From the UHGV virus genome UHGV-0057186: a stretch of DNA of 64,000 nt; one strand, 5' to 3'. This document shows, in pieces, positions 29,763 through 33,568 of this stretch (within the stretch, counting starts at the first letter, position 1; the number at the start of each line of letters is the position of its first letter). Below the pieces are notes generated by a model that made no database searches, was not told the origin of the DNA, and worked only from the letters and a program-made list of their open reading frames with translations. Position numbers and translations under genes: made by a program. This stretch comes from a virus.

Positions 29763-29866
29763 AGTATTTCCTTAGGTTGATTAAGATTTAAAATCCGTAA
29801 AAGTAGTATTATACTCTATCATCAAGTTACAGGCTCATAATATCTCAATCATGAGCCTATGTAAAC

Positions 29867-30130
29867 TTATTTCATATTATTAAAATATTCTTCTGCGATT
29901 TCGTCGTTATCGTGGTAAACTTTAGAAGACAGTTTAACATAACCTTCAGCAGTGAACATATTAATCACAACCTTTACAGTATACCACTGTCCGTCTTCAT
30001 TACCCATTACTGCGTAAGTTTCAAACATCGGATGGTCAGGACCGATAACTTTAATATCATTCACTGTACGACCAAAATCTTCTGAAACGCATTTCATAAA
30101 GAAGTTGAACAGTTCGCCGTAATTATCCAT
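29867..30130 (-). CDS. hypothetical protein (87 aa)
   Basis: start MDNYGELFNFF with GGAG SD; promoter cassette upstream. Confidence 0.5.
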   Translation of the reverse strand: MDNYGELFNFFMKCVSEDFGRTVNDIKVIGPDHPMFETYAVMGNEDGQWYTVKVVINMFTAEGYVKLSSKVYHDNDEIAEEYFNNMK

Positions 30131-30173
30131 TTCATTCTCCAAGTTGTTTTTCTGTATCAGTAGTTGATAGTTG

Positions 30174-30204
30174 TATAGTACCATGGAAGAACAGTCTTGT
30201 AAAC
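30174..30204 (-). promoter_or_regulatory. early promoter cassette (GTTTAC / TACTATA)
   Basis: near-identical to cassette at 12514-12544. Confidence 0.55.
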
Positions 30205-30338
30205 CATTTTGTGAAAAAAAAATTTTTAAAAGTTTTAGGGAATTCTAGGGAGGGATGGGCAATTAAAGGATAGGATAATATATTATAAAGGGTATAAACT
30301 AAATGATGCCTAGAGAGGTCCAGAAAGGCCTAGATACC

Positions 30339-30363
30339 AAAAAGCCCTATCATTTAGATAGGG
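30339..30363 (-). terminator. intrinsic terminator
   Basis: CCCTATC-TAAAT-GATAGGG hairpin followed by CTTTTT on minus strand after stop at 30372. Confidence 0.5.
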
Positions 30364-30371
30364 ATTTAAAA

Positions 30372-30656
30372 TTATTTGCTTAGTTTAGTTATTATAGCTT
30401 CTGCGGCAGCTTTTAGCTTAGATGCGGTGTTAATACGATTTTTAATTTCAGTATACGCATCGCCAAGAACATCAAGGCTATCGGAATAAACACTTACACT
30501 ATTGCGTTCGCTATTTGAAATAGAACCTTTAGTTTTGCGATCAAAATCGGTGTACACGTCTTGAAGATCACGGGCTGCCTTCTTTGCATCATCCAATGCC
30601 ATTGCTTCCATGGCCCAGTGTGTTTCAGGGTCTATGTTTTCAATCTCACGGGTCAA
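30372..30656 (-). CDS. hypothetical protein (94 aa, TTG start) or 3' part of a gene interrupted by an in-frame TAA
   Basis: frame continues upstream through TAA (30687-30689) to ATG 30741-30743 with GAGGA SD; GGGAG precedes the TTG. Confidence 0.4.
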   Translation of the reverse strand: MTREIENIDPETHWAMEAMALDDAKKAARDLQDVYTDFDRKTKGSISNSERNSVSVYSDSLDVLGDAYTEIKNRINTASKLKAAAEAIITKLSK

Positions 30657-30777
30657 TGCAACTCCCAGGTCTTTTGCAAATTTTTGTTATTCAGGAGTTA
30701 ATGAATCATATAACTTTTTCATTTCTTTATCTTCAATATTCATAATATTTTCCTCAAGGGGCTTTCGCCCCAATCAT

Positions 30778-31083
30778 TTAGATTTTATTTTCCTGCACAC
30801 CATAATACAGTTCATCAGACACGATATTCAGGATGCGGCGAACATATTCATCATGGTAACGACATTCAAAATCAAATTCAACTGTAGTTTCTGCTTCACG
30901 AGTAAATTTAACAACCACATTCAGGTGGTTAACAACTTTAGTAAAGCTGTCAGTAAAGAACTCTTTTGCTACTGCTTGTTGTACTTGTACTTTATACTTT
31001 GTATTGCGAATCATGTTTTCAGCTGATGCGAAATTACCAGTTTTATCAAAGTCAACAAGCGCCAGGTTGATGATGAATTTCAT
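30778..31083 (-). CDS. hypothetical protein (101 aa)
   Basis: start MKFIINLALVDF preferred; upstream extension in track lacks SD. Confidence 0.5.
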   Translation of the reverse strand: MKFIINLALVDFDKTGNFASAENMIRNTKYKVQVQQAVAKEFFTDSFTKVVNHLNVVVKFTREAETTVEFDFECRYHDEYVRRILNIVSDELYYGVQENKI

Positions 31084-31192: not shown

Positions 31193-31220
31193 AAAAAAGC
31201 CCCAACCTTTTGGTCGGGGC
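31193..31220 (-). terminator. intrinsic terminator
   Basis: GCCCCGACC-AAAA-GGTTGGGGC hairpin followed by TTTTTT on minus strand. Confidence 0.55.
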
Positions 31221-31365
31221 TAAGAATGTTATTTGATTTGTTTAGCAGACCAAATGCGGTCTTTGATGATTTTTTGGAGGTCTTCAACATACTCTAGGTC
31301 ATGAGCATGTGGATTATCTTTAAAACTATAAGCTCGCGCAAGTTTCTGGCCTTCGGTCTTAATTA

Positions 31366-31689
31366 TCAAAAGTTCTTTAAGAATTGCTTCATACCTAGAG
31401 ATAATTCCTTTAGCAATATTTTTTCTTGTGCTGCTTTAGGGTCAGCCTTAGGAGCAGGTTTACCAGAAGGTTTTTCGAAAGCCGCGCCAGTAGCAACCAG
31501 GCTTTTCCAGGCGGTGGTAACATAGTTACCCACAAAGCCTTCAGCTCTCATATCGTCGTAGAACTTGTACCGAGATTCGTCAGAAGCATCTTTATAAGAA
31601 TATTTACCAGCTTTAATAGCAGCAGTTGCTACAGCGCGAACATCTGAAGCGGATGCTTCGGTCATTAAAAATTGAGCATAAGTTTTCAT
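31366..31689 (-). CDS. internal-protein-like (capsid-targeting N-terminus)
   Basis: MKTYAQFLMTEASA start; AGGAAA SD; late promoter upstream. Confidence 0.55.
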   Translation of the reverse strand: MKTYAQFLMTEASASDVRAVATAAIKAGKYSYKDASDESRYKFYDDMRAEGFVGNYVTTAWKSLVATGAAFEKPSGKPAPKADPKAAQEKILLKELSLGMKQFLKNF

Positions 31690-31727: not shown

Positions 31728-31754
31728 AAAAAGCCCCAACCTTTCGGCTGGGGC
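31728..31754 (-). terminator. intrinsic terminator closing the tRNA/stable-RNA transcription unit
   Basis: GCCCCAGCC-GAAA-GGTTGGGGC hairpin followed by TTTTT on minus strand. Confidence 0.55.
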
Positions 31755-31804
31755 TAAGCCTTGCGGCAACCTTGTCGGGGTTCCACCTGCTAAGGCAAGT
31801 GTTT

Positions 31805-32042: not shown

Positions 32043-32597
32043 TTACCGGTAGCGACCCGGTTTCTCATTTGGTATTTCAAATTGTGTAGATTTAGTATCT
32101 AATTTTTTAACTATGGAACTTATGTCATGAAAGAAAAACCATTCGCCATTTATATGGTCCTGATTATAAATGCTGTGCATATATTTTTCAAGTTCTACTG
32201 CATCCTGGGAATATCTAAATGATACTATTTTAAAACTTTTAAACGGTGAAAATGTATTTGCTGTTATAACTCTAACATCAGGTTCTATACTTCTTCCTAT
32301 TTTATAATAATTAGGATTTGTAGTATCTACCATTATGTATACGAAAGCCTGTCGATAGCTTTTTTCTATATCAAATTCATCTTTAAATTTCAAAAGATTT
32401 AGGGCGGCAGTCCTACAAAATACTTTCCATTTTGACAAGCGTTTGGCTTCAGTCATAGAAAAGAATTTTTTCTTATCTGTTATTTTAAGAAAAGCAACAT
32501 TTTCAATTAGTTCTTGTGTTATTTCAAAATTACCACGGTATATTAATCCAGCTTTTATAGCCAAATTAATTTGGTCCCAGTCTACATCACTTCTCAT
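32043..32597 (-). CDS. T5orf172-type (GIY-YIG superfamily) domain protein
   Basis: C-terminal half FVYIMVDTTNPNYYKIGRS...R...E...H...EWFF fits the T5orf172 pattern; sits inside the tRNA/stable-RNA locus. Confidence 0.6.
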   Translation of the reverse strand: MRSDVDWDQINLAIKAGLIYRGNFEITQELIENVAFLKITDKKKFFSMTEAKRLSKWKVFCRTAALNLLKFKDEFDIEKSYRQAFVYIMVDTTNPNYYKIGRSIEPDVRVITANTFSPFKSFKIVSFRYSQDAVELEKYMHSIYNQDHINGEWFFFHDISSIVKKLDTKSTQFEIPNEKPGRYR

Positions 32598-32618: not shown

Positions 32619-32695
32619 TGGCCAGGGTGAAAGGATTCTAACCTTTAACCTGCGGTTTAGAGGACCGCTACTCTATACAATTGAGTTACACCCCG
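32619..32695 (-). tRNA. tRNA-Arg (anticodon UCU)
   Basis: manual cloverleaf: acceptor CGGGGUG/CACCCUG, anticodon stem GCGGU/ACCGC, loop CCUCUAA, T-arm AAAGG-UUAGAAU-CCUUU, CCA encoded. Confidence 0.7.
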
Positions 32696-32820
32696 TAATT
32701 AGTTCACAGCAATACCTACTCCAACAATCAAGATGTCTTCACACGAAATTAAGAGAAGAGTGATCAGTTTAACCCCTATAATCGCGTCAAGTGATATTAA
32801 TGTGACAACTGTCACAAGTT

Positions 32821-32895
32821 TGGCGGACGTGATAGGATTCGAACCTATAACAAATCGCTTAACAGGCGATCGCTCTGCCATTGAGCTACACATCC
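32821..32895 (-). tRNA. tRNA-Asn (anticodon GUU)
   Basis: manual cloverleaf: acceptor GGAUGUG/CACGUCC, anticodon loop CUGUUAA, T-arm AUAGG-UUCGAAU-CCUAU, CCA encoded. Confidence 0.7.
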
Positions 32896-32899
32896 AAAT

Positions 32900-32986
32900 T
32901 GGTGGGGAGTGATGGAGTCGAACCACCCGAGTCGCAATGACAATGGATTTACAGTCCACACCGCTACCTCTACGGGATAACTCCCC
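32900..32986 (-). tRNA. tRNA-Tyr (anticodon GUA), type II with long variable arm
   Basis: acceptor GGGGAGU/ACUCCCC, anticodon stem GUGGA/UCCAU loop CUGUAAA, T-arm GGUGG-UUCGACU-CCAUC, CCA encoded. Confidence 0.7.
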
Positions 32987-32995
32987 AAATTAATT

Positions 32996-33070
32996 TGGTG
33001 GCCCTGGGTGGAATTGAACCACCATCTGGCGATTATGAGTCGCTTGCTTGAACCTTCCAGCTACAGGGCC
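32996..33070 (-). tRNA. tRNA-Ile (anticodon CAU, presumably modified) or tRNA-Met
   Basis: acceptor GGCCCUG/CAGGGCC, anticodon loop CUCAUAA; corresponds to T4 tRNA-Ile position next to tRNA-Thr. Confidence 0.75.
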
Positions 33071-33071
33071 T

Positions 33072-33147
33072 TGGTGCTGATTGACGGAATCGAACCGCCG
33101 ACCTTCTCATTACAAGTGAGTTGCTCTACCTACTGAGCTAAATCAGC
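33072..33147 (-). tRNA. tRNA-Thr (anticodon UGU)
   Basis: reverse complement reads GCUGAUUUAGCUCAGUAGGUAGAGCAACUCACUUGUAAUGAG..., as T4 tRNA-Thr. Confidence 0.9.
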
Positions 33148-33152
33148 AAAAC

Positions 33153-33242
33153 TGGCGGAGGCGATAGGATTTGAACCTATGAGTCGCCGGAGCGACTGCC
33201 GGTTTTCAAGACCGGTGCATTAAACCACTCTGCCACGCCTCC
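33153..33242 (-). tRNA. tRNA-Ser (anticodon UGA), type II
   Basis: reads GGAGGCGUGGCAGAGUGGUUUAAUGCACCGGUCUUGAAAACCGG...; long variable arm. Confidence 0.9.
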
Positions 33243-33244
33243 AG

Positions 33245-33318
33245 TCTCCATACAAGGATTTGAACCTTGGACCTCCTGATCCCAAATCAGGCGCTCTACC
33301 AAACTGAGCTACACGGAG
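33245..33318 (-). tRNA. tRNA-Pro (anticodon UGG)
   Basis: anticodon loop UUUGGGA; T-arm GGUUCAAAUCC; CCA not encoded. Confidence 0.85.
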
Positions 33319-33328
33319 TAAATTAAAT

Positions 33329-33402
<74 letters not shown>

Positions 33403-33407
33403 AAATT

Positions 33408-33494
33408 TGGTGCGAGAAGTGGGACTCGAACCCACAAGGAAATCATTCCGCAGCATTTTAAGTGCTGTGCCTTTACCAATTTGACCATTCTCGC
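33408..33494 (-). tRNA. tRNA-Leu (anticodon UAA), type II
   Basis: reads GCGAGAAUGGUCAAAUUGGUAAAGGCACAGCACUUAAAAUGCUG...; long variable arm; CCA encoded. Confidence 0.9.
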
Positions 33495-33495
33495 G

Positions 33496-33568
33496 CTGGG
33501 AATAAAGGACTCGAACCTTTGCATCCTGGAATCAAAATCCAGTGCCTTACCAACTTGGCTAATTCCCA
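33496..33568 (-). tRNA. tRNA-Gln (anticodon UUG)
   Basis: acceptor UGGGAAU/AUUCCCA, anticodon loop UUUUGAU, T-arm AAAGG-UUCGAGU-CCUUU; CCA not encoded; abuts tRNA-Leu. Confidence 0.85.

Follow-up and report, generated by a model that had tools for sequence, protein, structure and literature searches.

An ochre-interrupted hybrid of two ORFan genes in a T4-like phage genome, a probable by-product of modular shuffling

The minus-strand reading frame at positions 30743-30372 of the window (here the whole 64,000-nucleotide stretch of UHGV virus genome UHGV-0057186 that was analysed) joins the beginning of one ORFan gene to the end of another and is broken at codon 19 by a TAA. Most probably, the locus represents a hybrid gene made by recombination that carries a C-to-T stop, a non-functional and decaying by-product of modular shuffling in the hyperplastic region of T4-like phages. 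A megablast search with positions 30200-30900 returned 457 phage records, mostly Tequatrovirus infecting Escherichia or Shigella, and on this similarity the window is assigned to a T4-like phage.

When the minus strand was read directly, the Shine-Dalgarno (SD) sequence, ATG, TAA, GGGAG, TTG and terminal stop described in the first-pass annotation were all found to be correctly placed. A spacer of 7 nt separates the GAGGA (30755-30751) from the ATG (30743-30741), and an 18-aa product is what would be expected from this strong start. Beyond codon 19 the frame stays open, in the same phase, to the TAA at 30374-30372; it thus spans 124 codons with both stops included, the TAA at 30689-30687 being its sole break. 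The TTG at codon 30 opens the 94-aa ORF of the mechanical ORF list. The signals of the frame are as follows.

30751-30755, minus strand: Shine-Dalgarno GAGGA, read directly; identical across the homologues in alignment A1
30687-30743, minus strand: ATG and 17 further sense codons (MNIEDKEMKKLYDSLTPE), then TAA as codon 19 (30689-30687), from translation
30654-30666, minus strand: GGGAG (30666-30662), 5 nt, then the in-frame TTG (30656-30654, codon 30), read directly
30609-30611, minus strand: ATG at codon 45, derived (ACG>ATG, Thr to Met) and confined to the TAA lineage; the parents and the CGA allele have ACG
30411-30414, minus strand: A4 run; A3 in the sister allele (L012, L013), where it causes a frameshift to the tail KLKLPQKL and a stop
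30339-30363, minus strand: intrinsic terminator CCCTATC-TAAAT-GATAGGG followed by CTTTTT, directly 3' of the ORF; aligns with the annotated SA21RB_136 terminator

The first-pass annotation had treated the frame as a single one opened at a strong start. The open frame is real, but instead of descending from a single old gene it is a chimera that combines two unrelated ORFans. Against PHROGs, residues 1-54 align with positions 1-54 of the 132-position phrog_8232 profile, and residues 42-117 with positions 99-178 of the 178-position phrog_2280 profile. Approximately codons 1-50, together with the ribosome-binding site, are of the phrog_8232 type, and codons 51-123 with the terminator are of the phrog_2280 type. 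The parts of the hybrid and its joint can be delimited as follows.

30600-30743, minus strand: 5' segment from the 131/132-aa ORFan family (phrog_8232), codons 1-48; from PHROGs, with 148 of 150 nt identical to the P0013 gene
30372-30599, minus strand: 3' segment, made up of the C-terminal ~75 codons, TAA stop included, of the 187/188-aa ORFan (phrog_2280); from megablast, alignment and PHROGs
30584-30599, minus strand: recombination joint with the 16-nt microhomology GCATTGGATGATGCAA; from a three-way DNA alignment, with 14 of the 16 bases common to both parents
30758-30771, minus strand: hairpin GGGGC-GAAA-GCCCC separating the 101-aa gene from the SD; it was imported along with the 5' segment

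At the joint, the corresponding parent sequence reads GCATTGGAAGAAGCAA, and the protein passes from one parent to the other as ...ETHWAMEAMAL/DDAKKAARD.... Most of the Tequatrovirus matches in the megablast search end abruptly at window position 30599, the shared part consisting of the last ~75 codons and the terminator of the 187-aa SA21RB_136; the terminator at 30339-30363 came along with the 3' end of this 187-aa gene. The phrog_2280-derived part has 100% protein identity to the intact parent P0004, and since these C-terminal 75 codons are identical, sequence alone gives no sign of decay there. The formation of the chimera or of its stop may simply be too recent for decay of the 3' part to be visible. 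Pfam produced only matches below the curated cut-offs (Spectrin_2, LTXXQ and Cytochrom_B562), which were not used, and a second protein search returned close relatives of the 188-aa parent alone, which precluded a deep alignment. The 188-aa parent was modelled with AlphaFold at low confidence (pLDDT 61, pTM 0.32), and the model was used only for the approximate placement of helices and linker; it suggests an N-terminal helical part followed by a disordered linker at residues 77-96 and by two long helices at 101-136 and 142-187. On this model, the junction (near parent residue 115) would interrupt the first of the long helices and would not coincide with a domain boundary.

The ancestry of the interrupted codon can be read from the intact relatives of the 5' parent. 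Codon 19 is CAA (Gln) in 11 of the 11 intact homologues examined (L001-L007 and L014-L017), and TAA in the window and in L008-L011. Uninterrupted 132-aa coding sequences starting at the homologous ATG are annotated in Gaprivervirus VR20, P896, TH54, P479 and 212, and also in fPSFA; in the DNA alignment, these genes and Tequatrovirus SA21RB_134 have CAA at the site of the window's TAA. Furthermore, a protein search that used the conceptual full-length product as query recovered the 131-aa P0013, and its gene, present in four assemblies (L014-L017), is identical to the window at 148 of the first 150 bases, the two differences being CAA>TAA at codon 19 and ACG>ATG at codon 45. Because this closest intact relative differs at two of 150 bases and one of them is a C-to-T change, the stop arose by a single C-to-T change. 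Codons 1-18 and codons 20-50 both align in frame with the 131-aa gene, and such in-frame alignment on either side of the TAA with intact CAA genes makes the pattern more than chance. Judged from these alignments, the stop is derived and lies one transition away from an intact relative. The suggestion of a recent nonsense mutation, and hence of a pseudogene, is borne out by the CAA in all intact homologues and by the proximity of the nearest parent. The first-pass annotation had also considered that orthologues in related phages might share the stop and an independent downstream start, which would make the locus two ordinary genes; none of the intact orthologues compared has a stop at codon 19.

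The TAA is a property of the phage population and not of a single record. Three assemblies from other samples, L008, L010 and L011, show it on direct inspection; their flanks are 97-98% identical to the window. Sequencing error had been listed among the first readings of the interruption, and it is rejected on the identical TAA in these three assemblies with their distinguishable flanks; the change is, in addition, a substitution and not an error of homopolymer length, which leaves a practically negligible chance that this record was mis-sequenced or misassembled at the TAA. Over 5.5 kb, L009 matches the window at 100% identity, and it probably represents the same phage. All of the TAA carriers (L008-L011) hold the same chimera, and an exact-protein look-up, the route by which all environmental copies were obtained, recorded the exact 94-aa product on 6 contigs. 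The allele sits in several genomic backgrounds, with or without a downstream 132-aa gene and with differing genes beside the tRNAs. From this distribution, the TAA allele is taken to be heritable and to circulate in nature, and its persistence across backgrounds could reflect either tolerance or usefulness. Propagation on a suppressor host, which had been offered as an accompaniment to the nonsense mutation, finds no support, given that the allele occurs in several environmental assemblies.

Other collections yielded no further copies. An exact-pattern scan for the allele in IMG/VR viral contigs, in which the mutated base was set to N, gave 0 matches, as did an exact-pattern scan of JGI metagenome contigs for the whole stop-to-junction stretch. 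The chimera is absent from cultured phages in INPHARED, where no record covers at least 80% of window 30200-30900. As a separate observation, the 132-aa gene (phrog_8232, Tequatrovirus-type and SA21RB_134-like) lies between e.8 and e.6 in L008 and L010 and is absent from the window (~29763-29866) and from L009; in some of its carriers the chimera is thus accompanied by an intact paralogue of the 5' parent, whereas the window phage has none.

Decoding of the stop into the full 123-aa fusion, by an ochre-suppressor tRNA, by readthrough or by a gene-60-style hop from GAA at codon 18 to GAA at codon 35, would restore a single product, and some local features agree with it. The base following the TAA is C, a relatively weak termination context. 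A GAA stands directly before the stop, a second in-frame GAA lies 48 nt downstream, and a GAG is found 3 nt ahead of the second GAA. The likeness to the bypass of T4 gene 60 consists in this stop directly after GAA and in the recurrence of the codon in frame some 50 nt downstream. Unlike in gene 60, no take-off stem-loop is present here, window 30705-30670 folding at -0.3 kcal/mol with z = 0.45. The 48-nt "gap" is former coding sequence and encodes conserved residues (QKFAKDLGVALTREI) in the parent family. The downstream match is to be expected by chance, since GAA accounts for 9 of the 124 codons, and the stop is a recent point mutation, one change from the parent gene, and not an old conserved feature. 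Unlike in ochre suppression of the T4 psu type, ARAGORN found no tRNA with the ochre-reading UUA anticodon among the 10 tRNAs in the 64-kb window, which were Arg, Asn, Tyr, Met, Thr, Ser, Pro, Gly, Leu(taa) and Gln(ttg). TAA is, moreover, the commonest genuine stop in the window, ending 37 of 64 long ORFs, this ORF included. Within the 64-kb window, gene-60-like bypass, a suppressor tRNA and codon reassignment were rejected on folding, tRNA content and stop usage, respectively, and production of the fusion by any such route is considered very improbable.

A different way of giving the interruption a function is to regard the locus as two cistrons, in which an 18-codon leader is followed by a restart at TTG30 or at the new ATG45, so that the two helices at the C-terminal end of the phrog_2280 protein would be made separately, as a product of 94 or 79 aa. 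The first of these layouts, an 18-aa leader with a TTG-initiated gene, had been put forward in the first-pass annotation, and its elements do exist: an SD-like GGGAG stands 5 nt before the in-frame TTG, which lies 30 nt past the stop. Pairing of AACUCCUG (30699-30692) with UGGGAGUU (30667-30660) in an 8-bp stem would keep the GGGAG masked as long as no ribosome has reached the leader's end. In addition, the ACG>ATG change at codon 45 is confined to the TAA lineage and perfectly linked to the TAA, the protein sequence further downstream shows no damage, and the TAA allele is present in several assemblies. These signals, however, pre-date the stop. The GGGAG, the TTG and the 8-bp stem are all unchanged in the intact parent gene, and because the GGGAG and TTG are base for base the same there, where they belong to Gly27 and Leu30, they did not evolve as start signals. 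The folds are no more stable than shuffled sequence (z = -1.78, -0.62 and 0.10). The only candidate SD for ATG45 is a GGG separated from it by just 2 nt, too short a spacing for that role, and TTG is weak as an initiation codon. Furthermore, the two-ORF layout is restricted to copies at least 97% identical, and diverged relatives have one uninterrupted ORF. The junction cuts helix 101-136 of the C-terminal hairpin in the low-confidence model, and with its first long helix cut in this way the restart product would not be a clean domain.

Sarabhai and Brenner in 1967, and Napoli, Gold and Singer in 1981, reportedly described T-even ochre mutants and reinitiation after early nonsense codons in T4 rIIB. 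The present locus resembles those classical cases in having a single early CAA>TAA in a non-essential gene with potential restart codons shortly downstream; it differs from them in being a natural metagenome allele in a hybrid gene, and its restart codons are candidates. As in bacterial termination-reinitiation, a short upstream ORF ends here before a potential SD and start on the same mRNA (PMC9841429). The efficiency of bacterial reinitiation falls as the distance from stop to start grows, and in contrast to coupled pairs with overlapping or adjacent stop and start (PMC9841429), the distance here is 30 nt from the TAA (30687) to the TTG (30656) and 75 nt to ATG45, with no overlap or abutment, a TTG as start and signals older than the stop. 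A further report on reinitiation (PMC4648390, Sci Rep 2015) treats eukaryotic scanning and does not apply here. Going by these signals, expression of a truncated protein from TTG30 or ATG45 is conceivable, and for TTG30 poorly supported; a true two-cistron arrangement is rather unlikely.

The hybrid gene has also been altered in a second lineage. P0001 (116 aa), known from L012 and L013 in two samples, is a further allele of this chimera: codon 19 reads CGA (Arg), codon 45 retains the ancestral ACG, and P39T is present. It has, in addition, one synonymous change and a 1-nt deletion in the A-run at 30414-30411, through which the last 15 codons give way to the KLKLPQKL tail. Polarised against the parents, the changes since the chimeric ancestor are Q19* and T45M in the TAA lineage, and Q19R, P39T, one synonymous change and one frameshift in the CGA lineage. 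Of the resulting six changes (one nonsense, one frameshift, three missense and one synonymous), all but the synonymous one modify or truncate the product; six are far too few for a test of relaxed selection. The adjacent 306-nt (101-aa) gene shows no differences between the same genomes, and pN/pS in the parent families is 0.14-0.6. Small as the numbers are, the changes in the chimera form the pattern that unconstrained sequence would show.

Lesions were also observed elsewhere in the phrog_2280 family. In window 31229-31689 (minus strand), a 107-aa ORF (31689-31366) and a 46-aa ORF (31369-31229) together make up one split phrog_2280 paralogue of 153/157 aa. The split results from a -1 frameshift in the A-run at 31424-31419, which is A6 in the window, A7 in the intact copies and A11 in L008; the paralogue is intact in L011, L012 and SA21RB_137. 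The split may reflect a true pseudogene, a site prone to slippage or a miscalled homopolymer. In L018:907-1473, on another phage contig (Logan SRR25571654), a full-length 188-aa phrog_2280 gene carries an independent CAA-to-TAA change at codon 57 (FTMS*ENKF), as a result of which gene callers report pieces of 56 and 91 aa. P0019 (118 aa), found on ENA contigs outside the window, has residues ~98-123 of the phrog_2280 protein (MFDTKKYVNALNKALDALDDAKKAAR) fused to Nudix-looking sequence (RECLEETG...). Its breakpoint lies ~8 codons from the junction in the window, and this proximity hints at a possible hot spot of deletion or recombination. Across these sequences, the phrog_2280 family and its locus appear to be lesion-prone.

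Repeated damage of this kind raises the question of whether loss itself is selected, with the intact fusion or phrog_2280 proteins being harmful in some hosts, through toxicity or by triggering host defence, and knock-outs being repeatedly favoured. Codon 19 is changed in each of the two known alleles of the chimera, to TAA or to CGA, and the CGA allele is also frameshifted; a word-indexed search of a 5.8-billion-protein database found no fully intact 123-aa chimera. The independent lesions in the family, namely the A-run frameshift of the paralogue with its other run length in L008, the codon-57 TAA of L018 and the fusion or deletion in P0019, would fit as well. The same pattern is, however, expected of dispensable genes under no selection, and the chance that two of six changes fall in one of 124 codons is about 0.1 by a hand estimate. 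Furthermore, most sequenced relatives have an undamaged 187-aa gene, and a single cluster of this 187-aa form comprises 151 member sequences. Selection for loss is judged improbable. That the stop is meaningful in any sense, either as a selected knock-out (the L018 allele included) or through re-tooling of the locus to the C-terminal helical hairpin by way of TTG30 or ATG45, is unlikely.

The genomic setting agrees with an origin of the hybrid by modular shuffling. T4-like phages possess hyperplastic regions in which ORFans are shuffled through promoter-early stem-loop (PeSL) cassettes (Arbiol et al. 2010, PMC2839356; Comeau et al. 2014, PMC4122927). The locus described here is likewise a variable block of small ORFans by tRNA genes: ARAGORN places the 10 tRNA genes at 32619-33568, on the same strand as the ORF, and the ORF lies downstream of this cluster within a small-ORFan block that precedes e.8 and e.6. 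The gene content between the tRNA cluster and e.8/e.6 varies among SA21RB, VR20, L008, L009 and L014, and, as in PeSL shuffling, the differences between relatives consist in whole ORFans that are inserted, deleted or replaced. BLAST painting assigned window 31130-30584 to the Gaprivervirus/L014 type, covering a 101-aa ORFan and the 5' end of the 131-aa gene, and assigned the flanks on both sides to the SA21RB type. Two further features delimit this imported block.

30778-31083, minus strand: 101-aa ORFan (phrog_7474), imported with the 5' part of the chimera; from PHROGs and BLAST, with 0 differences from L012 and L013
31193-31221, minus strand: terminator hairpin marking the left edge of the imported segment; SA21RB-type similarity ends just after it

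The two boundaries of the block are of different kinds. Cassette-targeted exchange has been argued to avoid chimeric genes as a rule (PMC2839356; PMC4122927), and both crossovers were tested for a position in intergenic stem-loop and early-promoter cassettes. The left one fits, as in PeSL shuffling, lying in an intergenic region with the terminator hairpin and an early-promoter-like site at 31154-31126. The right one does not: unlike in PeSL shuffling, it falls inside two coding sequences, at the 16-nt microhomology (30599-30584) and not in an intergenic cassette, and a hybrid ORF is the consequence of this position within coding sequence.

A course of events can be proposed from these boundaries. 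A block from another T-even lineage would have replaced the 5' two-thirds of the resident 187/188-aa ORFan (phrog_2280), bringing with it the 101-aa ORFan together with the ribosome-binding site and the first ~50 codons of the 131-aa ORFan (phrog_8232). The left crossover presumably took place in the intergenic terminator/early-promoter element, and the right one in the 16-nt microhomology inside both coding sequences, in frame by chance, which would have yielded a fusion of 123 codons. Codon 19 of this fusion would then have changed from CAA to TAA by the single C-to-T transition. Ribosomes starting at the GAGGA-ATG would now stop after 18 residues, and the other 105 codons would be left untranslated, or translated weakly by reinitiation at TTG30 or ATG45.

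The locus is thus most likely an ordinary product of phage genome shuffling and decay, with its main consequence for annotation. The 94-aa TTG "gene" that is called in the window and on no fewer than five further contigs should preferably be annotated as what is left of the 3' end of a broken hybrid gene, and not as a genuine protein. The case also provides a natural example of T-even shuffling with a crossover inside coding sequence, leading to an in-frame ORFan chimera that is seen in the wild in damaged forms only. It offers a small, concrete view of gene birth and death in T4-like hyperplastic regions, with no new mechanism.

Several minor observations concern the neighbourhood of the hybrid gene. 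The split 153-aa gene stands between two near-identical terminator hairpins at 31193-31221 and 31732-31755 (minus strand), AGCCCC...GGTTGGGGCT with a T-run behind it, and elements similar to these paired hairpins occur upstream of other ORFans in Gaprivervirus loci; the two hairpins are candidates for PeSL-type recombination cassettes. Immediately downstream of tRNA-Arg, window 32043-32597 (minus strand) encodes a 184-aa protein with T5orf172/MUG113 domains. SA21RB has a tRNA-His in that neighbourhood and no T5orf172/MUG113 gene, and the window has 10 tRNAs without tRNA-His; L008 and L010 are also without the MUG113-type gene. The T5orf172/MUG113 gene looks like a mobile-element-type insertion or replacement beside the tRNA cluster. 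Finally, the listed 105-aa ORF at window 29867-30184 (minus strand) is the e.8/Y07A homologue. The phrog_2678 profile aligns with it from residue 19, so that translation probably begins at the ATG at 30130; the resulting length of 87 aa is that called in L008 and L009.
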